From Staphylococcus phage LY01: a stretch of DNA of 64,000 nucleotides. Of the stretch, positions 2,179-46,293 are shown one piece after another (the stretch's first letter is position 1; each line of letters starts with the position of its first letter). Made by a program: the position numbers and the translations under genes. The notes under the pieces are model-generated. The model saw nothing but the letters and a program-made list of their open reading frames with translations. It made no database searches and had not been told where the DNA came from. The stretch lies in the sequence record OR836606.1. The stretch is one strand, 5' to 3'.

Positions 2179-2454
2179 TTATTTAAGATTATCTCTGATA
2201 AAATTCTTTAAATACTTTTTAGTTACTTCAGAATGTGAATTTAATTCGTTAGAAAGACGAACTAATTCTAGTTTCACTTCATTCAATTTCTTTTCATTAG
2301 TTTGATTAGAACTTTCTATTCTATTAATTAATGTACATATGATATCATTTAAATAATGATAATTATCTTTCATAGTATTTAATTTAATTTCATTCATTCT
2401 AGTACGTTCTTCTAATTCGTCCATACGCTTAATTAAACTTTTTTCATTATTCAA
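2179..2454 (-). CDS. small coiled-coil protein (91 aa), paralog family
   Basis: Ends ...NFIRDNLK, similar to the C-terminal IVKENLK motif of ORFs 2475-2723 and 3191-3379. Confidence 0.4.
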   Translation of the reverse strand: MNNEKSLIKRMDELEERTRMNEIKLNTMKDNYHYLNDIICTLINRIESSNQTNEKKLNEVKLELVRLSNELNSHSEVTKKYLKNFIRDNLK

Positions 2455-2474
2455 AATAAAATCACATCTCTTTA

Positions 2475-2723
2475 TTATTTAAAGTTTTCTTTAACAATTT
2501 CGTTAGACAATTTATTTATATAATCATTCTTAAATTCTGTATGCTTAGAAATTGACACTATTGCTTCTTTAAGAAGTTTATTTTCTTTTTTAAGATTTTC
2601 ATTATATGCATAAAGATTATTTACAGCTTTATTTAATTTTTCAATTTCAAAATTAAGACGATCTAAATTAGCTATGCTCCTAAATTCAATAGTTTTCAAT
2701 TTTTCTTTAATTTCTTTATCCAT
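2475..2723 (-). CDS. small coiled-coil protein (82 aa), paralog family
   Basis: Ends ...NEIVKENFK, shared with 3191-3379 (NEIVKENLK). Confidence 0.4.
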   Translation of the reverse strand: MDKEIKEKLKTIEFRSIANLDRLNFEIEKLNKAVNNLYAYNENLKKENKLLKEAIVSISKHTEFKNDYINKLSNEIVKENFK

Positions 2724-2735
2724 TTTTAATCACCC

Positions 2736-3191
2736 TTATTTAATTAATTTAAATAAATTACGTCCAAATTCCTTATACTTTTTATTTTCTAATATACTGA
2801 AATCAACTAAGCTGCTATCAACTCTAAGTAAATATATTGAATCATCTTTTTTATTTTTATTATTTAATATAAAACTTCCAAAATAGATATTACCTTCATT
2901 AGGTTTTTCTTTTTTAACGTTTACTGCATTTTCATTAAATTCAAATTTATAAATGAAACCTAGTAATTGTATTGGACCGTTTTTAAATATATGATAATCG
3001 AAATTATTTTCAAATTTATGGTCTTCATTATTAATTTTCTCAATTAATTCATCTTTAATAACTTCATTATAAAAAGATTCATCCACTTGACTTAATGGCC
3101 TTAAATATGATTCTTCATCTACCTTTGGTTCTAACATTTTAATTTTTTGATCTAAAGTTAATTCTTTGGCAATAACTTTTTCATTTGACAT
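2736..3191 (-). CDS. hypothetical protein (151 aa)
   Basis: ORF in the same operon-like block on the minus strand. Confidence 0.45.
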   Translation of the reverse strand: MSNEKVIAKELTLDQKIKMLEPKVDEESYLRPLSQVDESFYNEVIKDELIEKINNEDHKFENNFDYHIFKNGPIQLLGFIYKFEFNENAVNVKKEKPNEGNIYFGSFILNNKNKKDDSIYLLRVDSSLVDFSILENKKYKEFGRNLFKLIK

Positions 3192-3379
3192 TATTTTAAA
3201 TTCTCCTTAACAATTTCATTTACTATTTTATTTAATTCCTTTTCATCATAACCACTATTCTTTTTAATATTAATTATAAATTTTTTTAATTCTTTATTTT
3301 CTTCTTTTATCTTATTTGTATAGAAATTATCTATGCTCATGGAAATACCTTTTGAATTTACGTTTATAATTGAAGACAT
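3191..3379 (-). CDS. small coiled-coil protein (62 aa), paralog family
   Basis: C-terminal NEIVKENLK motif shared with 2475-2723. Confidence 0.4.
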   Translation of the reverse strand: MSSIINVNSKGISMSIDNFYTNKIKEENKELKKFIINIKKNSGYDEKELNKIVNEIVKENLK

Positions 3380-3391
3380 CTTAAATTCCCC

Positions 3392-3655
3392 TTACATGAA
3401 TTTTTTATTTAAATCTTTATAAATTAATTTTTTTAATTCTTTTCTATCATATTTATTTTCTTGATATAGTTTAAAAAGGAAACGATTGAGTTCCCTATTC
3501 TCTTCTTTAAGTTTATTAATCTCATCAATTTTATCTCGCCCTGATAAATTTCTACCTATACTATTTATATTTTTAGAAATATTATTCATTGCTGCTTGTA
3601 AATGATTTTTATTAATTTTACTACTCGCATTATTATTATTATTATTATTATCCAC
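3392..3655 (-). CDS. small N-rich/coiled-coil protein (87 aa)
   Basis: ORF with poly-N tract. Similar E/K-rich architecture. Confidence 0.35.
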   Translation of the reverse strand: MDNNNNNNNASSKINKNHLQAAMNNISKNINSIGRNLSGRDKIDEINKLKEENRELNRFLFKLYQENKYDRKELKKLIYKDLNKKFM

Positions 3656-3675
3656 TTATATCATCCTTATACATA

Positions 3676-4902
3676 TTATTGAACTACAATCAAATTCTTT
3701 TTAGCACGAGTGATAGCTGTGTATAATGACTTAAATCTATCTTTACTCATATTTTCACTAAATACTATTACATTATCAAATTCAGAACCTTGAGATTTAT
3801 GAATAGTGATTCCGTATGCAAAATTAAATGGATTTACTTTCATACCAAAATCAGACATCTCAGTTACATATCGTTTCTTAAATATTTTATTAATTTCATT
3901 ATCTCTGTGTCTTAGATCAAATAATTCTTGTTGATCTCCAATAGTGCCTTCAAAAATTAAATCATCATAATATATTCTACTAAATCTTTCCTTTTCAAAA
4001 CCTTTAGGTTTAAAATCCATTTGAGTTGATTTAGTCATAGGTTTTTTCTTACCAGATCTAGTTATATTTCCAATTAGACCGTTAGTTAAATATTGAGTTA
4101 TATCACCTTCATTAACTACTTTAGACCAATTATTTTTTAAACACATAATTTTTTCATCCTCTTTAGGGAATGGATTATTTTCAACATCGATATTTAATAT
4201 TTGACTTCTATAGAATCTATTAAATTGATCTACCGTTCTATTATAGCTCATTAAAACTTGATCTGCATTCTTATACATGTCTAAAGTTAATTCATCTGAA
4301 GTAATTACATGTACATTATCTCCATAAGAACCGTATTCTAAATCTTTACCATTACGAACTAAATTAGCTGCAACAAGTATAGGATTATCTAATGACTGTC
4401 TTACTGGTTCATCTAAGAATATGTCAGGTTTATCTAATAATTCATTTCTTCCTGATAAGCTTTTAAGCTGTGCGGGGTCTCCTAAACAAAGTATAGGTAT
4501 ACCAAAACTTTGAATTTCTTCTATCATCTTCATAGGAACCATTGAAACTTCGTCTATGATTATTAACTTAATATCACTTGGTAACTCATCTTTTAATGTA
4601 AAATTTACTTTACCAGTTTTCTCATCCATAAAATGATTATAAATAGTTCTATGGATTGTAGTTGCATTTAATCCTCTTTTGACTAACACACCTGCAGCCA
4701 TTCCTGTATATGCTATAAAAGAAACATTAGCTTCATGTAAACCTAAAGAATCGATTATTTTAGTCATTGTATAGGACTTCCCACTTCCAGCGATGCCTGA
4801 TAATACAAAAGGTCTATGACTATCATTATTATACCATTCTTTAGCTAATCTTAACCCTTCTTCTTGTTTTTTATTTAACCCCATTATCTTAATACACCTC
4901 AA
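3676..4902 (-). CDS. SF1 DNA helicase, Dda/RecD-like (408 aa)
   Basis: Walker A GIAGSGKSYT and Walker B IIDEVSM. C-terminal GITIHKSQGSEFDNVIVF motif typical of the RecD/Dda/Pif1 family. Confidence 0.75.
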   Translation of the reverse strand: MRCIKIMGLNKKQEEGLRLAKEWYNNDSHRPFVLSGIAGSGKSYTMTKIIDSLGLHEANVSFIAYTGMAAGVLVKRGLNATTIHRTIYNHFMDEKTGKVNFTLKDELPSDIKLIIIDEVSMVPMKMIEEIQSFGIPILCLGDPAQLKSLSGRNELLDKPDIFLDEPVRQSLDNPILVAANLVRNGKDLEYGSYGDNVHVITSDELTLDMYKNADQVLMSYNRTVDQFNRFYRSQILNIDVENNPFPKEDEKIMCLKNNWSKVVNEGDITQYLTNGLIGNITRSGKKKPMTKSTQMDFKPKGFEKERFSRIYYDDLIFEGTIGDQQELFDLRHRDNEINKIFKKRYVTEMSDFGMKVNPFNFAYGITIHKSQGSEFDNVIVFSENMSKDRFKSLYTAITRAKKNLIVVQ

Positions 4903-30430: not shown

Positions 30431-30592
30431 CATTTATATTAACTATATGAATTTCATATAGATTAGACTATATCTTATACTTCTAATAAGTATTATTATA
30501 TTTAATCGTTGGACAATCATAAAGATTGATGCTGATTAAGTTTATAAACTTTTCCAGCAATTAATAATATTTATACTGAGCCATTAAAATTA
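30431..30592 (-). ncRNA. miniature group I self-splicing intron (162 nt) in nrdE
   Basis: On the minus strand, in order: IGS GGCUCAG pairing with exon end CUGGGU (terminal U.G), P AAUUGCUGG, Q AUCAGCAUC, R GUCCAACGAUUAAAUA, S GAUAUAGUCU, P9 hairpin CUAUAUG/CAUAUAG, 3' tail ending ...AUAAAUG. Splicing yields ...SYVNQLG|QRNGAGALYL, a canonical NrdE junction. Confidence 0.75.
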
Positions 30593-34682: not shown

Positions 34683-34758
34683 TTTTTATATACTATTTTA
34701 CTAAAATATCTAATACAATCTAGTTAGATTTGTTTTATAAAAATTTGCGATAATAAAT

Positions 34759-34787
34759 AGGTAATGACAAATAATATGTCATTACCT
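34759..34787 (-). terminator. rho-independent terminator (minus strand) after terminase exon 6
   Basis: AGGTAATGACA ... TGTCATTACCT stem, the same family as the 1610-1650 hairpin. U-rich tract on the minus strand. Confidence 0.5.
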
Positions 34788-34796
34788 ATAATATAT

Positions 34797-35201
34797 TTAA
34801 TCTAATAGATTCATTATTCTTTTTGATTTCTGATCTGGAGAAGAATTGTTATTCTGTAATAAAGGATTACTAGGGAGATTACCATCAATAATTCCACTAA
34901 TACGTTTCATGGATGCAATATCTTTTCTTCTAGCTTGTCTTTCTTTTTCAATTTCTTCTGCATTATCTCCATCTGCAGATACCATTGAACCGTATTTAAC
35001 TTTAACAAATTTCTTAATGTCTTTCTCATAGTAATAAGCATATAAACAAAATAGATAACTCATAAGTAAATCGTCATGTCCGCCATCAGGGTGATCAATT
35101 CTACCTTTTTTCATTTGAAGGGATTTTATTTGTTGGAATAATGGTTTATTATTAACTAAATAAGGTTTTTCTTCAACAATCATTGATAAAATTTCATTGA
35201 G
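34797..35201 (-). CDS. terL: terminase large subunit, exon 6 of 6 (LNEILSMIVEEKPY...HPDGGHDDLLMSYLFCLYA...)
   Basis: Contains the terminal catalytic HDD motif followed by a hydrophobic helix, typical of the C-terminal end of the terminase nuclease domain. Reading frame is open upstream of the annotated ATG. The ATG at 35204-35202 is predicted to be the intron's last 3 nt. Confidence 0.7.
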   Translation of the reverse strand, partial: LNEILSMIVEEKPYLVNNKPLFQQIKSLQMKKGRIDHPDGGHDDLLMSYLFCLYAYYYEKDIKKFVKVKYGSMVSADGDNAEEIEKERQARRKDIASMKRISGIIDGNLPSNPLLQNNNSSPDQKSKRIMNLLD

Positions 35202-35389
35202 CATTAGATCTGCTATATAAATTCATGAGTTTAATTTAATTAAAATGAATTTATTCGACTTCGTCATCACTCTGACTTACTTTGCACTTTAAGTTTTTTC
35301 GTTATAAACTACTTCAACAGAAAGCTTTAATCAAAGCAGAGGTTAAAGCTCTTAAGTCATCGCATTTGGACATTTAGAGGAATAAGACC
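35202..35389 (-). ncRNA. predicted TnpB right-end / omega-RNA scaffold region (3' end of IStron)
   Basis: Non-coding, locally GC-richer, stem-rich segment immediately 3' of tnpB, as expected for the IS605-family RE and omega RNA. The guide would correspond to the first ~16-20 nt of terminase exon 6. Confidence 0.4.
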
Positions 35390-36559
35390 TCATTTAGCCT
35401 GCCCAACAAAACGCTTACCATACAGTTTTAAATTGACAGCAGCGTTATAATCTCTATCCATTTTATGTCCACAATCACAGGAATACCATCTATCTGATAG
35501 TTTCAACTTATCTTCTTTAGTTAGAATTTGGCCACAATTAGAACATAATTGAGTTGATGGAAACCATCTGTCAGCTACAATAATAGTATTACCATTGCTT
35601 TCAGCTTTTTGTTCAAGTAAAGTCCTAAACTGTCTCCAATTGGACTGTGCGATTGATTTGGATAGTTTTCTATTTTTAATCATATTTGAAACCTGTAAAT
35701 CTTCAATAGTTATATATTGATAATTGTTAATCAAGTTAGTAGTAATCTTATGAAGATAATCTTTTTTAATATTATTAATTCTATACCATACTTTTTGTAT
35801 TTTGGTTTTCAATACATTGTATTTATTAGAACCATAAACTTTTTTAGATAATCTTTTTTGGTAGTATTTGATTTTATTATAGAGTGAGATTAGTTTATTA
35901 TTTAATGAATGGTATTTTTTAAATTTACCGAAATCATCATTAATAATAGCTAAATCTTTTACACCTAAATCAATACCTACATGACTATTGTTATGAATTA
36001 ATTTTTTACTGTTATCAACTTTCATTACTATCGAAGCGAAATACCTACCAGCATATTTGGATATAGTTACTTCTTGTATAGAATTATAATCTTTGTTTAA
36101 AGGTTCTTTCATTTTAATTAATGAATTTACACCACGCAATTTAAGTTTATTATTTTTCTCACCTTTAATTTGAATAGCGTAAGGATCTTTCCTATAGAAC
36201 CTTGCTCTTAATTTAGATTTCTTTTTAGATTTAAATTTAGGATATTTACCATATCCTTTCCACATCATATTAAATGCTTTACCTAGATCTTCTGTAGAAG
36301 TTTCAATTATCATGATAATTTGATCTTTCTCCCAATCTTCTTTACATTTTTTAAGTTCATCACGAACTCTACGATGAGTTGGTTTTGGTAAAGATTTATC
36401 AATTTGATAATTATTCCACATATATTTCCATTTATTAAGTGCCTTGTTATAAATATAACGACTATATCCAAAAGCTTGATTAAATATCTCTCGTTGTTCT
36501 TTATTAGGTTTCAATTCGATTTTTATAGATTTGTACATGTGATTTTCACCTCGATTCAT
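35390..36559 (-). CDS. tnpB: TnpB (IS605/IS1341-family OrfB RNA-guided nuclease, 389 aa)
   Basis: N-terminal YKSIKIELKPNKEQ...FNQAFGYSRYIYN HTH-like start. RuvC-I GIDLGVKDLA, RuvC-II ITIEDL, zinc ribbon CSNCG...CDCGH, RuvC-III DRDYNAAVNL. Intact frame. Confidence 0.85.
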   Translation of the reverse strand: MNRGENHMYKSIKIELKPNKEQREIFNQAFGYSRYIYNKALNKWKYMWNNYQIDKSLPKPTHRRVRDELKKCKEDWEKDQIIMIIETSTEDLGKAFNMMWKGYGKYPKFKSKKKSKLRARFYRKDPYAIQIKGEKNNKLKLRGVNSLIKMKEPLNKDYNSIQEVTISKYAGRYFASIVMKVDNSKKLIHNNSHVGIDLGVKDLAIINDDFGKFKKYHSLNNKLISLYNKIKYYQKRLSKKVYGSNKYNVLKTKIQKVWYRINNIKKDYLHKITTNLINNYQYITIEDLQVSNMIKNRKLSKSIAQSNWRQFRTLLEQKAESNGNTIIVADRWFPSTQLCSNCGQILTKEDKLKLSDRWYSCDCGHKMDRDYNAAVNLKLYGKRFVGQAK

Positions 36560-36599
36560 ATTTCTAAATGATTTAGAATTTATAATTCATTGTTTAATA

Positions 36600-37140
36600 T
36601 ATCGAGGTAAAAATTATTTTAATTAAATTAAACTCACGAATTCCAGAAATCCCTTTCAGGTTCTGTTAAATAGCAAGACTATATCATGATCCATTAAATC
36701 AATGGACCCCTCGCACTTCGAAAAACTTCTGATGAAGTTAATCTACTCTACTCACTTCACATAGTATTTCAACTATGCTTATTCAGGTTAATCAAACCTG
36801 TGCTTTCGATAGTCGTTGAACGTTTATCCATCATGTGGACACTTCGCTGCTAGACTTCCCATTGTTTACAAACTTTAGCGATCTAGGGTTTTCACCTAGA
36901 CTTGTTTTCAGCATAGTTCATCTTAGAGATTTTTTCTGTCTTTCGACTGCATGTCACGCTATCCATTACTGGCATACGTTGTAGCTCTCTAAGCTTTAGG
37001 GTTTTACAAGCAATTCACGAGGTATTTTTACCACTAATTTCATGAATTAAAATTAGTTTAATTTACTTATATAGTAGCAGAGCGTGAAACATGAATTAAT
37101 AAGAATTTAAGTCTTAATTCACTTAAAATATCTTAAATTA
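36600..37140 (-). ncRNA. full-size group I ribozyme core of the IStron (5' part)
   Basis: P/Q/R/S elements in canonical order on the minus strand. Long peripheral insertions. P9-like hairpin CAGAA.../...UUCUG before the tnpB start. Begins immediately after the terminase exon 5 sense codon, so the in-frame UAA is the first 3 intron nt. Confidence 0.65.
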
Positions 37141-37977
37141 AAACTGTTTCGTTACTCTAGATTTTTTAGTTGTATCAATACCATATCTTCTTACTTGTTT
37201 GGTAACTTTATTAGTGCTATTTCTAGGAATTTCATTAAATACTTGCTTATTAACTTCAACTTGTTTTTCTGCTACTCTATTCTTTAATGAGTAGAAAATA
37301 TTGTCTCCAATACCATCAGTTTGAATCATATCTTCTATCATTACAGTACCTGCATAGTTACGTTCAGGTATTAATACTGCATTAGGTATATAAAGCGTAA
37401 TAAGTTCTTTAATTAATTTTCTAAAAGTAGGTCCATTAATTACATTATTTTGGAAAATCATTACAGGCTCTAATGTACCTGGATCAACTACAGTAAATGC
37501 AGTATTATCTCGACCAAGACCACCAGATATATCAATACCAACAAGCCAGTTCTTTTCATGCATATTATCCATCTTTTTAACCATATAAACATAATAAGTT
37601 TTACCATTTATTTTAAAATCAATAGTATTATATATCTCTTTATTTGCATATAATGATAATTCTGACATTTGTTGTTCATCAAATAAAGAATCATCGTTAC
37701 TAAACGCCCATTCAAGAAGTATCTCACGTTTAACTGCTTCTAAAGAACCAATTTGACGTTTTTGCTTTTCTAACCAAGCATCATCTTTACCTAATTCTTT
37801 ATATGAATATTCTATATAGATGAATGAATTGCCTGAATTACTTTCCATATACTCTTCTAATTTTTCATTACCCTCTTCTTCAGAATTAATGTAATAATCA
37901 TATATTTTTTCTGTCCATTGTGCTGCATCATTCATTTGCTCAAAGAAGAACTGTCCTTGAGGTACATCCAAAGTACT
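37141..37977 (-). CDS. terL: terminase large subunit, exon 5 of 6 (nuclease domain: STLDVPQGQ...WLVGIDISGGLGRDNTAF...)
   Basis: RNase H-like terminase nuclease motifs (first catalytic Asp in GIDISGG). The annotated ATG at 37980-37978 is predicted to be the intron 4 3' end. The stop at 37138-37140 is the IStron's first 3 nt. Confidence 0.75.
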
Positions 37978-38138
37978 CATATTTTTTATCCTATATTAAT
38001 TTAATATAGATAAGACTATATCTTAGTATATTATAATACCATTTATTATTTAGTCGTTAAACAAGTATTATCAACTTGATGCTGATTGTCTTAATAAAGA
38101 TTTTCCAGCAATTAAATAAATAAGCCCAGTTTAATTTT
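37978..38138 (-). ncRNA. miniature group I intron, terminase intron 4 (161 nt)
   Basis: IGS GGGCUU pairs with exon end GCCU (terminal U.G). P AAUUGCUGGAAAAUC, Q AAUCAGCAUC, R GUUUAACGACUAAAUA, S GAUAUAGUCU, P9 CUAUAUUAAAUUAAUAUAG, ends ...AUAUG. Confidence 0.7.
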
Positions 38139-38210
38139 AGGCGTTGTTGTAATTAGAAGACCATAAGGTGTGCCATTTTTCTTAGCTATTGCAGATGCTG
38201 TAGAAACTGC
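38139..38210 (-). CDS. terL: terminase large subunit, exon 4 of 6 (72 nt: AVSTASAIAKKNGTPYGLLITTTP)
   Basis: Encodes the ATPase coupling motif III (ITTT), as in T4 gp17. Exactly 24 codons between two predicted introns. Confidence 0.65.
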
Positions 38211-38370
38211 CTTTTAATATTAATCTACATGGATTCCATATAGAATAGACTATATCTTAGTATTATATTAATACTATTTATTATTTAGTCGTTGAACACT
38301 ATAAATAGCGATGCTGATCGTCTTAATAAAGATTTTCCAGCAATTAAATAAATAAGCCCGCATTAATTTC
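38211..38370 (-). ncRNA. miniature group I intron, terminase intron 3 (160 nt)
   Basis: IGS GCGGGCUU pairs with exon end GAGGCCU (terminal U.G). P/Q/R/S elements. P9 CUAUAUGG/CCAUGUAG. Tail UUAAUAUUAAAAG. Confidence 0.7.
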
Positions 38371-38440
38371 AGGCCTCATTGCTTCAAACATTGTTTGGTT
38401 GTGTGGAATGAATGCCCACTCATCCAACCAGACCATAGGT
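38371..38440 (-). CDS. terL: terminase large subunit, exon 3 of 6 (70 nt: ..PMVWLDEWAFIPHNQTMFEAMRP)
   Basis: Encodes the Walker B/catalytic carboxylate region (VWLDEWAFIP, compare T4 gp17 IYIDECAFIP). Frame is phase 1 and is completed by the 14-nt micro-exon. Confidence 0.65.
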
Positions 38441-38596
38441 CATTATGTTAACTATATTTAAAAAATATAGATCAGACTATATCATACTCATATAAATAAG
38501 TGAATATATTTAGTCGTTGAACACTATAATTAGTGATGCTGATTAAGATAATAATCTATTCCAGCAATTAATATTCTTTTACTACTGCAACTATCT
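38441..38596 (-). ncRNA. miniature group I intron, terminase intron 2 (156 nt)
   Basis: P1: micro-exon end CUACUGU pairs with IGS GCAGUAG (7 bp, terminal U.G). P AAUUGCUGGAAUAG, Q AAUCAGCAUC, R GUUCAACGACUAAAUA, S GAUAUAGUCU, P9 CUAUAUUUUUUAAAUAUAG, tail UUAACAUAAUG. Confidence 0.6.
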
Positions 38597-38610
38597 ACAG
38601 TAGAACCACG
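38597..38610 (-). CDS. terL: terminase large subunit, micro-exon 2 of 6 (14 nt: CGUGGUUCUACUGU)
   Basis: The only segment length that restores frame between exon 1 (ends with the complete codon GGU) and exon 3 (phase 1). Bounded by omega-G of intron 1 (AAAAUAG|) and the U.G pair of the intron 2 P1. Confidence 0.5.
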
Positions 38611-38737
38611 CTATTTTAGACTATATCTTCAATTTTATAATTGTCTTTTATTTAGTCGTTGAACACATATGTGATGCTGATCAAATTAAATAATTTGTCC
38701 CAGCAATTAAAAAGATTTATAGCAAGCCATGATATTA
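38611..38737 (-). ncRNA. miniature group I intron, terminase intron 1 (127 nt, no P9 hairpin)
   Basis: IGS AUGGCUUGCU pairs with exon end AGCAGGU (7 bp, terminal U.G). P AAUUGCUGGG, P5 CAAAUU/AAUUUG, Q AUCAGCAUC, P6 ACAU/AUGU, R GUUCAACGACUAAAUA, P8 CAAUU/AAUUG, S GAUAUAGUCU, then AAAAUAG|. Confidence 0.6.
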
Positions 38738-39379
38738 ACCTGCTTTATTTGCACTCTCACTGTTAGTCGGAGGTGAAACTGTTTTAATAGTATTGTTATT
38801 ACTAGCTAATTGAAATTCGTTGATCTTATCTCTATCATTTTTATCTCCAAAATTAGCTAATACATATTCAGGTAAACATTTCTCTTTAAATAAGTTTTTA
38901 AGACGTTTTAAGTTCTCAGTTGTATCTGAATAAGATTTGTGTGTAAATAACATTGTATAGTTACTACCTACTAATAACATTATCCATGAATAATAACATA
39001 CTGCTGAATATGTTTTATAGTGCTGACGTGGAAGCATTATAGCTGTATCTAAATTGTGTAACATACAAAATGTCATCGCCATATTACCTCTATGAAGTTC
39101 ATACATAACCTTACCGCCAGGAACAGGAACTCTTATAACTTCCCTTAAATAAAACCATATATTAATTTTAGCTTCCCTTAATACACGGGTTTTCATTTCA
39201 TCAGAAAGTTCAGGATCCCAAGGATCTACTCCTACAAGATTTTTATCATATAGAGTTAATGGAATCCCATAATTTCTGACGTTGTTCTTCTTAAGATCCC
39301 TAGCCACTCTTAAAAAACTAACATTATTAGTTTTATAATCGTAATAAACTTTTTTCTTTAATTTTGGTTTAATTGTCAT
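38738..39379 (-). CDS. terL: terminase large subunit, exon 1 of 6 (214 aa; ATPase N-terminal part with deviant Walker A LPRQHYKTYS)
   Basis: T4 gp17-like deviant Walker A (SRQLGKT-type). The stop TAA at 38735-38737 is the first 3 nt of intron 1. Confidence 0.75.
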
Positions 39380-39398
39380 ATTTATTTCAACTCACTTT

Positions 39399-40562
39399 CT
39401 ATACATTTAATCTATCTGATTTTTTAATTAATGTTTGAATATCAGAAAGTTGTTGTTTTAATTCATTTTTAACTTCTTTATCATTATTAGGGTTACTTAT
39501 TTCAAATTTTAATGTTTTAATAATAGCTTCAATTGAATCCGTTGGATAGTCTCTATAGTCTCTAATAAACAATCTACTTGGATATAATAATTTCCTAACA
39601 ATTTTACCTAATAAAGTTTTACCTTTTTTATTTTCAGATTTAGTTCTAAATGATTTGTATATGATATCATAAAAATTTATAATTTCAGTAGAATAACCGT
39701 ATAACGTAGGTAACTGATTAGCCGATCTTTCTGAAAGGTTGTAGTTCATTTTACCCACTCTTTCATTATCTAAAAGATTTAAAGTTACATTAGCTATAAA
39801 AGAACTGCCTAACACCAGTGGTAATACTCCTGTCAATGAAGTTAATCCAGCAACTAAAACTGTCATAGCTATAATCATAGGACCTGCGAATTTTAAATTT
39901 CTAGTTGTATCAGATTCAATGTCCTTAGTATACTGAAATTGAACTGGCTTGTTATCTTTATATTTTAATTCAAAAGCGGGTTCTTTTCCTTGGCTTAATA
40001 CTTTAATTTCGATAGGTAAAAATAGATTATGTCCCATTTCATGCAATAATAATGCAGTACACATTCTTTCATTAAAATTACTAAAAGTCACTTCTTTAGA
40101 AGATTTTTTCTTTTCTAAAAAGTATCTTATTGAAGATAACTCAATAAATACCTCAATTTCCCTAGGTTTAGCGTAATGTATACCATTTTTCTCTTCCATA
40201 ACTATTTTTGTTATGCCATCAATAGTATCTCTTATTTGTTCTGGCTTAATTAAAGTATAAGCCACTGATCTTACTCTAAATTTATCTTTACCTTTAGGAT
40301 CAGCTTCAACAAATTTTAATTGCATATTAGCATTAAATAATTTTTTAGTAATTTTAGAAATATTATTAGCTATTTTATTTATTTCATGTTTATCAATTAA
40401 ATCAAATTCAGATTTATCGAAATTATAGCTATCTAATAAAGTTTTAAATTCTTCATCTATTTCTCTAAGTAATGAAGTATTTTTACTGAAATTAAAAGCA
40501 TCTTCATTAATATTCATTATTTTATTAATTTTATTCAATTGGCATTCTTTTCGTAAATCCAT
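39399..40562 (-). CDS. putative membrane-associated Zn metallopeptidase (HExxH; 387 aa), paralog A
   Basis: LLHEMGHNLFLP motif. Predicted TM segment (FAGPMIIAMTVLVAGLTSLTGVLPLVLG). Strong similarity to the adjacent ORF. Confidence 0.5.
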   Translation of the reverse strand: MDLRKECQLNKINKIMNINEDAFNFSKNTSLLREIDEEFKTLLDSYNFDKSEFDLIDKHEINKIANNISKITKKLFNANMQLKFVEADPKGKDKFRVRSVAYTLIKPEQIRDTIDGITKIVMEEKNGIHYAKPREIEVFIELSSIRYFLEKKKSSKEVTFSNFNERMCTALLLHEMGHNLFLPIEIKVLSQGKEPAFELKYKDNKPVQFQYTKDIESDTTRNLKFAGPMIIAMTVLVAGLTSLTGVLPLVLGSSFIANVTLNLLDNERVGKMNYNLSERSANQLPTLYGYSTEIINFYDIIYKSFRTKSENKKGKTLLGKIVRKLLYPSRLFIRDYRDYPTDSIEAIIKTLKFEISNPNNDKEVKNELKQQLSDIQTLIKKSDRLNV

Positions 40563-45506: not shown

Positions 45507-45660
45507 TTTAGGTTAAATGGCTCACATTAAATTATATTAATTGCTGGAAAAGATTATTATCTTAATCAGCATCAACTTAATACAAGTTGTTCAACGACTA
45601 AATATATAGCCTAGATGATATAGTCTAACCTTTATTAAAATGATAAAGAATAATAATTTG
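45507..45660 (+). ncRNA. miniature group I intron 1 (~154 nt, boundaries +/-3 nt)
   Basis: IGS GGCUCAC, P AAUUGCUGGAAAAG, P5 GAUUA/UAAUC, Q AAUCAGCAUC, P6 AACUU/AAGUU, R GUUCAACGACUAAAUA, S GAUAUAGUCU, P9 CUUUAU/AUAAAG, tail AAUAAUAAUUUG. Confidence 0.7.
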
Positions 45661-45920
45661 CAGGACATCCTTTAAGTGATGAACCTAAACGACAAATGTA
45701 TATTGATCAACGTAATATTTCTCATATCGTTACTAGAACATGGTGGAATGGTAATAAATTAATGGCAGAAGTAGAAACGGCACAAACAGCAGCTGGTAAA
45801 GATATGAAAGGTTTAATCGGACAAAAGTCTGACGTATCTTTCTCAATGCGTGGTTTCAGTAAAATTAATAGAACACCTTCTGGCGAAGTTGAAGTTACTA
45901 AACCTTTAAGATTAATCTGT
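45661..45920 (+). CDS. head-region hypothetical protein, exon 2 of 4 (..SGHPLSDEPKRQMYIDQ...PLRLIC)
   Basis: Frame open from 45657 upstream of the annotated ATG. Ends at the complete codon TGT. P1 of the next intron is CUGUU/AGCAG. Confidence 0.6.
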
Positions 45921-46101
45921 TAAATTGTAGCAGCTTTATATAGAAATATATATTGAAAAAGAATATTAATTGCTAAGAAGTTTAATTAAGCCAATTAGCA
46001 TCAACTTAATACAAGTTGTTCAACGACTAAATATATTTACTCTTAATAAGAGTATGATATAGTCTAATCTTAATAGTAAGATCTATTAAGTTAATATAAT
46101 G
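45921..46101 (+). ncRNA. miniature group I intron 2 (~181 nt)
   Basis: P AAUUGCUAAGAAG with compensatory Q AAUUAGCAUC (P4 covariation relative to the other copies). R GUUCAACGACUAAAUA, S GAUAUAGUCU, P9 CUUAAUAG/CUAUUAAG, tail UUAAUAUAAUG. Confidence 0.65.
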
Positions 46102-46121
46102 TACGATAAAATAAACCTTGT
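46102..46121 (+). CDS. head-region hypothetical protein, micro-exon 3 of 4 (~20 nt; only frame YDKINLV is open)
   Basis: Segment between omega-G of intron 2 (46101) and the predicted 5' splice site of intron 3 (UUGU|, IGS GCAA 10 nt downstream). Alternative lengths of 18 or 24 nt are possible. Confidence 0.4.
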
Positions 46122-46293
46122 CGCTTCTTAAAGCAATTTAAGAATGATAAAACTATTAATTGCTAAAATCTTTTATTAAAGTAATTAGCATCAACTTAAT
46201 AAAAGTTGTTCAAAGACTAAATATAGTTTATCCTTTTATAGGATAATGATATAGTCTGATCTATATTATACTAATATAGATAACATAAATGTG
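46122..46293 (+). ncRNA. miniature group I intron 3 (~172 nt, boundaries uncertain by a few nt)
   Basis: P AAUUGCUAAAAUC, Q AAUUAGCAUC, R GUUCAAAGACUAAAUA, S GAUAUAGUCU, P9 CUAUAUUA/UAAUAUAG, tail AUAACAUAAAUG(UG). Confidence 0.6.

Follow-up and report, generated by a model that had tools for sequence, protein, structure and literature searches.

The terminase gene terL of Staphylococcus phage LY01 (sequence record OR836606.1) is interrupted, within the stretch of 64,000 nucleotides analysed here (the window), by an intron, the fifth of the gene, that is probably an IS607-type (group B) IStron which has lost its serine transposase, has kept an intact tnpB, and whose RNA would take up competing folds for splicing and for guide-RNA formation. 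The boundaries of the element, the integrity of tnpB, a conserved and covarying RNA scaffold at the right end, an inverted-repeat (IR) stem and an affiliation with IS607 through a relative were established in the analysis. The source is an AT-rich jumbo Staphylococcus phage, and terL and all relevant genes lie on the minus strand. The principal parts of the element, in the order of transcription, are as follows.

35210..37154, minus strand: the IStron, terL intron 5, 1945 nt, starting UAACG (UAACGAAAC) and ending ...UAUAUAGCAG
37078..37083 (37083-37078), minus strand: candidate internal guide sequence GCUCUG, read from the sequence and compared with PMC4227781
36657..37059, minus strand: probable group I catalytic core, P2 to P9, with P7 5' strand GUUCAACGACUA and P7 3' strand GAUAUAGUC
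36644..36665, minus strand: P9-like hairpin with a GAAA tetraloop, CAGAACCUGAAAGGGAUUUCUG; relatives have NNGAUGUGGAAACACNNAUCNN in the same place
36610..36642, minus strand: 5' IR arm, AU-rich, closing the tnpB-containing loop
35390..36538, minus strand: tnpB, 382 amino acids, likely ATG start behind GAGGUG
35210..35406, minus strand: predicted omega-RNA scaffold, 197 nt, from the last tnpB codons to the right end, which is the 3' splice site
35220..35252, minus strand: 3' IR arm, the same bases of which form the terminal hairpin of the scaffold, AAAUUCAU...AUGAAUUU

Boundaries of the element within terL

Window positions 34700-39500 are about 92% identical to parts of MarsHill, PALS_2, UFV_DC4 and S6, phages with genomes of 263-269 kb. 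In phage S6 terL is uninterrupted (2034 nt), and alignment of this gene to the window was the basis for mapping the exons of terL.

39379-38738, minus strand: exon 1, from the S6 alignment
38610-38597, minus strand: exon 2, from the S6 alignment, a 14-nt micro-exon (CGUGGUUCUACUGU) flanked by two miniature introns
38440-38371, minus strand: exon 3, from the S6 alignment
38210-38139, minus strand: exon 4, from the S6 alignment
37977-37155, minus strand: exon 5, from S6 colinearity, ending ...AAAUCUAGAG, the final UAGAG of which is the 5' flank of the IStron
35209-34797, minus strand: exon 6, starting (D)LMLNEILSM..., sequence AUCUAAUGCUC

Joined, the six exons give a TerL of 677 amino acids that is colinear with the intron-less S6 TerL and identical to it at 657/677 positions (97%); the micro-exon is required to regain the RGSTV segment of the S6 protein. 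A six-exon TerL is the corrected annotation that this alignment predicts for Staphylococcus phage LY01. The 3' splice site, and with it the right end of the element, falls at 35210^35209 (...TATATAGCAG^ATCTAATGCTC, a caret marking the junction here and below), and the S6-colinear junction of exons 5 and 6 reads TCTAGAG^ATCTAATG, for which the predicted spliced RNA would be ...UCUAGAG^AUCUAAUG. A junction that restores the frame favours an intron and, given that terL is essential and that its TerL frame is restored, 37154..35210 would be removed by splicing. A sequence-only reading of the same DNA had taken the ends of stop-limited open reading frames (ORFs) for exon ends, and both of its junctions were misplaced as a result: the downstream one was set after the ATG at 35204-35202, and the hexamer CAGTTT, which it offered as a target-adjacent motif (TAM) at the end of exon 5, lies at 37146-37141, 9-14 nt inside the intron, where it is intron sequence read through by a stop-limited ORF. 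The true flank is ...TCTAGAG.

The same right boundary is reached from related elements. In ten right ends homology is lost exactly after CAG; all share ...GACGRAGUYGA...(hairpin)...AUWWRRCAG and then run into unrelated flanks. The intron-less TerL alleles are joined at the very point at which homology among these right ends stops.

A distant DNA search led to a homologous element in the Listeria jumbo phage LPJP1 (MZ422438; 280-2710), just upstream of the annotated groL start, an insertion point that we read as the groL 5' leader. This element shares its intron core with the one in the window, begins with the same UAAUGG and finishes with the same AUAUAGCAG / ...AAUUUAUAUAGCAG, and it carries a TnpA with a Resolvase domain (PF00239, E = 3.3e-18) between the core and tnpB, directly upstream of tnpB. 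As a Resolvase-domain protein is a serine TnpA, the element is of IS607 type and not of IS605 type, the family to which the sequence-only reading had assigned it. The features of group A (IS200/IS605) are likewise missing, the flank being AGAG and the transposase of the relative having a resolvase domain, and the logic of IS605-type subterminal hairpins is absent; the element belongs instead to an AG/CAG variant of the serine-recombinase type. The LPJP1 tnpB carries an internal stop codon. Labels in the LPJP1 record are limited to 'hypothetical protein' and 'IS607 family transposase'.

Left flanks could be compared for four elements, two of them the loci L018 and L022.

Window: TCTAGAG^TAACG
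LPJP1: GAAGCAG^TAATGG
L018: GTATCAG^TAATGG
L022: GAAACAG^TTATC, the left end starting UUAUC and not UAAYG

In the window, LPJP1 and L018 a UAAYG start follows directly after AG, and the pattern AG^ ... CAG^ recurs in 10/10 right ends and 4/4 left flanks; no GG/CGG ends were encountered. Taken together, the two flanks indicate that each transposon end is also a splice site, with AG preceding the insertion and CAG as the last bases of the element. Exon 5 has G as its last base, and the intron opens with U (...UCUAGAG^UAACG). Because AG is present on both sides of the junctions, both cuts could be shifted in the 5' direction by up to 2 nt, an ambiguity that is expected for the crossover site of a serine recombinase; AG is thus a candidate crossover dinucleotide, and UAGAG a candidate TAM or target core. 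The contig behind L022 (JGI24503J29689_10025773; 1450-2290) holds an ORF-less IStron consisting of the core and an omega-like right end ending GATAGCAG, and a second tnpB begins within 6 nt of it, in what looks like a tandem insertion at the CAG end.

At the 5' side of the element, the Rfam group I model RF00028 (Intron_gpI) aligns over its full length to the core; the score of 26.1 bits, with E = 1.3e-4 when 586 nt were searched, falls short of the gathering score of 50. The model was matched only in sub-kilobase Rfam searches; the whole window gave 0 matches at the gathering threshold, and a 5-kb E-value search returned noise only. The candidate internal guide GCUCUG, together with UAGAG of exon 5 and the first intron U, could give a P1 of 6 bp with a G(-1)-C pair and the U.G pair shifted by one base, as in the published description of group B IStrons (PMC4227781). 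In LPJP1, L018 and L022 a search for a consistent register of the internal guide found none, and for a P10 helix no convincing candidate emerged. In the P2 region at the left end, 34 nt (37035-37068) form a direct repeat that is 74% identical to the 3' IR arm at 35218-35251; this repeat may be a remnant of TnpA-binding subterminal repeats. In the window no tnpA was found in the stretch from the intron core to tnpB; described IStrons have often lost ORF A (PMC4227781).

tnpB and the proposed competing folds of the right-end RNA

The tnpB frame is listed as an ORF at 35390..36559 on the minus strand, the longer frame starting at 36559. Its product matches OrfB_IS605 (4.3e-22), Cas12f1-like_TNB (4e-20) and HTH_OrfB_IS605 (3.9e-12) in Pfam and the PDB homologues 8IAZ, 8H1J and 8EXA (E down to 1.7e-49). 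The RuvC residues D197, E286 and D370 and the four zinc-finger cysteines (CxxC...CxC) are invariant in 16 aligned homologues of 58-81% identity. In the LY01 annotation the identical (100%) protein is named 'mobile element protein'. Homologues at 57-81% identity are numerous and come mostly from metagenomic contigs of about 240 kb, and phages of about that size seem to be the main carriers of this TnpB lineage. In IMG/VR a query with the single TnpB had no match and an alignment query returned only relatives of <=34% identity; in GTDB (one genome per bacterial species) no relative exceeded 38% local identity, a weak negative as the search used two peptide patterns; JGI metagenomes contributed three useful short contigs. 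Outside the window LY01 has a second TnpB (P0002), 81% identical, which is absent from the window and whose locus was not located by exact look-up.

The roughly 180 nt between the tnpB stop and terL exon 6, together with the last tnpB codons, constitute a conserved structured RNA that adjoins the splice site. The ten right ends, corresponding to 35406..35210 in the window, were aligned with MAFFT (alignment A2), and RNAalifold on this alignment returned a GCUA/UAGC interaction, a long-range helix, a variable central domain and a terminal hairpin.

35366..35406, minus strand: first stem-loop ('nexus'), UUGGGCA/UGUCCAA, with an inner hairpin GAGG...CCUC
35398-35395, minus strand: pseudoknot strand PK-1, GCUA, in the internal loop of the nexus and within the last tnpB codons
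35358-35354 and 35261-35257, minus strand: long-range helix GACUU/AAGUC, enclosing the variable central domain (35257..35358)
35212..35215, minus strand: pseudoknot strand PK-2, UAGC, 2 nt before the splice site and followed by the terminal AG 35211-35210, G35210 being the last intron base

In a manually set register, pairs 2-7 of the nexus are kept in all ten sequences, with covariation at pairs 6 (CG/GU/AU/UA) and 7 (AU/UA), and the nexus forms in minimum-energy folds. For the pseudoknot, the long-range helix and the terminal hairpin, pairs were counted on the unmodified alignment: over these 16 pairs 98.8% of the cells are paired, and 7/16 show compensatory changes. The four pseudoknot pairs (G-C in 10/10; C-G in 7, U-A in 2 and U-G in 1; U-A in 7 and C-G in 3; A-U in 9/10) are paired in 97.5% of cells and include two that covary, while the five pairs of the long-range helix are paired in 100% of cells, with double changes GC<->AU in four sequences and UA<->CG in three. 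Complete compensations are exemplified by GCUA/UAGC becoming GUCA/UGAC, and by GACUU/AAGUC becoming AACUC/GAGUU. None of 500 shuffles reached the observed covariation score or percentage paired, and sliding the partners by 1-3 columns lowered pairing to 31-46%. The claim of the sequence-only reading that a TnpB omega RNA overlaps the 3' splice site is therefore upheld by covariation as regards the scaffold and the overlap, with the junction moved as described above.

ENA metagenomic contigs (L012-L017, the longest of 237,697 bp; locus coordinates 2378-3830) place the same TnpB clade in an intergenic spacer. These elements have no intron core, and upstream of tnpB only the P9 GNRA hairpin and the IR are left; they keep a full omega-like right end with its pseudoknot and end at the same CAG. 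Retention of the scaffold where there is no intron core argues for constraint by TnpB rather than by splicing. A scan for promoters and terminators found nothing between tnpB and exon 6.

The IR (36610-36642 with 35220-35252; 33 nt, 91% complementary) encloses tnpB and most of the 3' untranslated region. Its duplex has an energy of -36.2 kcal/mol, compared with -9.6 +/- 2.6 for shuffled 5' arms, and the local fold of the last 62 nt reaches -8.3 kcal/mol. When the ORF was deleted, the minimum-energy fold of the resulting mini-element contained the IR stem, the nexus and GACUU/AAGUC and did not contain the terminal hairpin, the pairs of which covary in the alignment. Complementarity in the IR region is kept in related elements, with different sequences and more weakly. 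A long AU-rich IR stem around the ORF region, with a local hairpin in its 3' arm, is a trait of group B IStrons. On these folds, the 3' IR arm and the terminal hairpin would act as a mutually exclusive switch.

Based on these observations we propose a model in which a single transcript has two possible fates. In the splicing fold, the 5' group I core would fold and the IR stem (36642-36610 with 35252-35220) would loop out tnpB, bringing the 3' end ...UAGCAG beside the core; splicing after G37155 and G35210 would then restore the reading frame of the essential TerL. In the guide-RNA fold, the last ~197 nt (35406..35210) would become the TnpB omega-RNA scaffold, with pseudoknot, long-range helix and terminal hairpin, and the exon bases that follow (AUCUAAUGCUCAAUGA...) would serve as the guide. 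Since splicing separates scaffold from guide, and since the two folds share nucleotides, the outcomes would exclude each other. The TnpB-omega-RNA complex would recognise the unoccupied terL site ...(N)AG^ATCTAATGCTCAATGA and cut a co-infecting phage that lacks the IStron, leading to homing or exclusion. We infer for the LY01 IStron splicing, accumulation of the omega RNA, TnpB activity, the identity of the TAM and any homing.

Competition between guide-RNA formation and use of the 3' splice site, which had been foreseen from the sequence, is supported on structural grounds, because PK-2 ends 2 nt from the splice site and because the terminal hairpin and the IR stem share bases and exclude each other in the modelled folds. 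The published IStron model agrees. The conflict has been worked out in Clostridium (10.1101/2023.11.20.567912): for the CboIStron of C. botulinum BKT015925, TnpA, TnpB, splicing and the antagonism between splicing and guide RNA have been reconstituted, and its second pseudoknot strand and last stem-loop overlap bases of the 3' splice site (10.1101/2023.11.20.567912; PMC13521648). When the structures are compared, the layout of the LY01 scaffold matches that of the CboIStron.

Guide, target alleles and rival explanations

The right-end boundary, as fixed by the six-exon TerL and by the ten right ends, would make the guide begin with AUCUAAUGCUCAAUGA and not with CUCAAUGAAA. The sequence-only reading had named the right exon and the wrong start, as 35209 lies 8 nt upstream of the CUCAAUG with which it began.

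35190..35209, minus strand: predicted guide, the first 16-20 nt of terL exon 6, AUCUAAUGCUCAAUGAAAUU, positioned from the right-end boundary

The predicted guide is unique in the window when up to 3 mismatches are allowed. By analogy with the CboIStron, the scaffold would end ...UAGCAG, the guide would read AUCUAAUGCUCAAUGA(AAUU) and the empty target ...AG^ATCTAATGCTC; the predicted protospacer next to the TAM is ATCTAATGCTCAATGAAATT. In all four left flanks AG is common, with A at position -3 in the window and C in the other three, and no TAM was obtained when its derivation was attempted from these four independent flanks. A 76%-identical TnpB element (L034, contig Ga0079226_10096437; 1329-1345) has a right-end flank, ATCTAA, equal to the first six bases of terL exon 6. 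Insertion of this element at the same terL site was considered and rejected, the downstream ORF having no similarity to exon 6; by eye only, that ORF resembles an RNA-polymerase subunit. The shared ATCTAA may be due to chance or to a 3'-flank preference (P10?).

Nine IStron-free relatives in the phage collection (L001-L003, L037-L042) have a continuous terL at the site. Over window positions 37155-37160, the arginine codon at the insertion site is CGT in all nine and AGA only in the IStron-bearing phage, and AGA creates both the AG core and an AGAG able to pair with the candidate internal guide. This difference could reflect exon co-evolution, co-conversion or resistance alleles. The empty-site alleles read TCTCGTG-ATCTAATGCTTAATGA in MarsHill and Madawaska and TCTCGTG-ACTTAATGCTTAATGA in S6.

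Several observations weigh against an active, splicing and RNA-guided element of the kind that we propose. The 5' flank in all nine relatives is TCTCGTG^ (CGTG), as against TCTAGAG^ (AGAG) in the window. The guide is mismatched once in 20 in MarsHill and Madawaska (position 11), and three times within the first 16 positions in S6, PALS_2, UFV_DC4, SA1, PB50, Machias and AH12, the mismatches in S6, PALS_2 and UFV_DC4 including guide positions 2-3. Given these differences in flank and guide, no known natural target is a perfect match and cutting of known alleles is unproven; the expectation, voiced from the sequence, of homing on intron-less terminase alleles finds no support in the nine that are available, with their TCTCGTG^ flank and one or three mismatches. 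The 5' flanks of related elements end in CAG, the same as the right end, so that the avoidance of self-sites is not accounted for. With no tnpA in the window, this genome generates no vacated donor site. The terminal hairpin is much less stable than the IR stem, and a full-length transcript may for this reason rarely take the guide-RNA fold unless it is processed or bound co-transcriptionally. As a single sequence the scaffold folds unexceptionally (z = -1.2), its support coming from covariation; no Rfam family matches the scaffold region, and the Rfam score of the group I core lies under the gathering threshold. Finally, to our knowledge TnpB has not been tested on uracil DNA.

Several of these points would suit an immobilised relic, a self-splicing intron with a tnpB ORF and no nuclease action, the 3' region of which was kept for splicing, that is for the IR stem and the presentation of the 3' splice site. 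The missing tnpA, the lack of a perfect target or flank in 9/9 IStron-free relatives, the strength with which the IR stem outcompetes the terminal hairpin and the stop codon within the tnpB of LPJP1 are all as such a relic would have them. However, tnpB is full length in LY01, with catalytic and zinc residues that are invariant across 16 homologues of 58-81% identity, and the nexus, GACUU/AAGUC and PK-1/PK-2 covary and persist in L012-L017, where there is no intron core; moreover, the pseudoknot of the CboIStron is needed for cleavage and dispensable for splicing (PMC13521648). We therefore regard a relic as unlikely, although it is the alternative that survives best.

A weapon of competition rather than a homing element, with TnpB and its omega RNA cutting the terL of co-infecting relatives and lowering their yield whether or not the element is copied, as with gp210 of PhiPA3, is in our view rather improbable. 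The target would be an essential packaging gene, the guide differs from the relatives at few positions (1 mismatch in 20 for MarsHill and Madawaska), and there is precedent in intron-encoded nucleases that act in jumbo-phage competition (PMC11620839). Against this stands the CGTG flank, in place of AGAG, in all of the relatives, and the idea is in any case compatible with the IStron that we propose.

A nested insertion, in which a TnpB-only insertion sequence has entered a peripheral loop belonging to an ordinary group I intron, is very improbable. The right end of the insertion would then fall at the base of the IR stem, and its guide would match intron sequence and not exon 6. At first sight, the position of tnpB and of most of the scaffold inside a 33-nt inverted repeat does resemble a stem-loop with an insertion; yet the ten elements, which lie in different genomic contexts, remain homologous across the 3' IR arm as far as ...CAG^ and no further. 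PK-2, which covaries with PK-1, is located 3' of that arm; the CAG end is the same in relatives that lack an intron core; and IR stems have been described as part of IStrons (PMC4227781). The exact version of the sequence-only reading, with an IS605-type element, a guide from CUCAAUGAAAUU (35201 downstream) and CAGTTT as TAM at the end of exon 5, is almost certainly wrong, for although these points are where stop-limited ORFs end and start, splicing there would not yield the TerL frame, CAGTTT falls within the intron, and the relative has a serine and not a tyrosine/HUH transposase.

Known systems and further possible introns in the window

A survey of IStrons in 2014 described as group B the elements BcISt1, CbISt1-4 (including those of Clostridium botulinum phages c-st and D-1873) and CsISt1 (PMC4227781). 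Their traits are a G at exon position -1, a U as first intron base, an IR stem of 15-34 bp that is >80% AU, a 3' direct repeat and, usually, GG/CGG ends; CsISt1 is deviant in that it inserts after AG and ends in CAG (PMC4227781). The LY01 element is like group B in its predicted 5' group I intron, in same-strand ORFs within a long AU-rich IR stem, in a repeat upstream of the 3' IR with a local hairpin, in the last exon G and first intron U, in ends that are the splice sites and in the frequent loss of tnpA with tnpB kept, and it is like CsISt1 in particular in its AG insertion and CAG end. The c-st IStron starts GAGG^TAAC and ends ...GCAACGG^, and we read in it a loop-to-3'-end complementarity, CGUUG/CAACG, comparable to the LY01 pseudoknot; its TnpB is only 33% identical to that of LY01. 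In contrast to the GG/CGG ends usual in group B, LY01 has AG/CAG. Whereas the hosts of group B are bacteria or the plasmid-like prophage c-st, LY01 is a virulent AR9-like jumbo phage with DNA presumed to contain uracil, and its element is inserted in an essential structural gene that already holds four other introns. The element fits the IStron family on every testable architectural feature except the GG/CGG ends and the missing tnpA.

With the CboIStron it shares a scaffold made of the tnpB 3' end and the right end, an upstream stem-loop that forms a pseudoknot with the last scaffold bases, the downstream exon as guide, the mutual exclusion of splicing and guide-RNA formation, here predicted from the folds, and a C at -3 of the right end (UCGG in the CboIStron). 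The CboIStron differs in its TAM TGGG and in a scaffold that ends UCGG with the guide right after, compared with a flank ...AGAG and an end ...GCAG in LY01, and it has an active TnpA and an activity that was shown by experiment, whereas the LY01 element is known from sequence. Introns of the CboIStron type are detected by the Rfam group I model, while the LY01 intron reaches only 26 bits.

Introns with homing endonucleases, such as T4 td/I-TevI and the PhiPA3 intron with gp210 (PMC11620839), resemble the LY01 element, for which self-splicing is predicted, as self-splicing introns in an essential phage gene that carry a nuclease gene, with the intron-free allele as the predicted target and with relatives that differ by silent changes beside the site. 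They differ in that the LY01 nuclease would be RNA-guided, transposon-derived and of a specificity copied from the flanking exon. Group A IStrons (CdISt1) also combine a group I intron with TnpB and have a right end CAG (TCAG); their TTGAT-like target, exon-end U, short GC-balanced IR stems, subterminal palindromes and tyrosine/HUH TnpA are not seen in the LY01 element.

IStrons in phage c-st have already been published, as has the idea that TnpA-less IStrons could spread by intron homing (2026 review, PMC13565253), and it is the setting that is new: in our literature searches no virulent jumbo phage was described as carrying an intact TnpB IStron in one of its essential genes. The AR9-like clade is reported to be intron-rich, with DNA presumed to contain uracil (10.1101/2020.12.14.422802). 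As a tentative and speculative extension, we suggest that a phage-specific IStron/TnpB lineage of the AG/CAG type may circulate in AR9-like and other jumbo phages of ~240 kb, and that in lytic phages without a transposase co-infection might let it spread as a homing intron guided by RNA, or act as a weapon of exclusion, its target being re-specified automatically by the exon in which it has landed. It might work on uracil DNA, and the silent CGT-to-AGA change would then mark an arms race of susceptible and resistant alleles.

If TnpB is active, the LY01 IStron would exemplify, in nature, RNA-guided intron homing or exclusion among phages in competition, and would be a tractable system in which to study it; either outcome is directly testable by co-infection with MarsHill or Madawaska, the terL of which differs from the guide at one position. 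An active enzyme would also show whether TnpB works on presumed uracil DNA, and would contribute a compact TnpB/omega-RNA pair whose flank requirement is non-GG and possibly NAG.

The remaining features of terL are its four miniature introns and a hairpin downstream of the gene.

38737-38611, minus strand: miniature intron 1, 127 nt
38596-38441, minus strand: miniature intron 2, 156 nt
38370-38211, minus strand: miniature intron 3, 160 nt
38138-37978, minus strand: miniature intron 4, 161 nt
34789-34757, minus strand: terminator-like hairpin 3' of exon 6

All four miniature introns are preceded by U, have G as their last base and share a common core, AAUUGCUGG...AUCAGCAUC...GUUCAACGACUAAAU...GAUAUAGUCU. 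Their scores against Rfam Intron_gpI, of 47.8, 42.1 and 26.5 bits, are all below the threshold of 50 and were obtained in a narrow search only. Group I introns of such sizes would be unusually small. Two core motifs of group I, AACGACTA and GATATAGTC, recur at 45593-46248, 49408 and 50451 on the plus strand and at 30474 and 52395 on the minus strand, one copy falling between two nrdE ORFs (gap 30434-30589), and this recurrence suggests that the window may hold several further introns.

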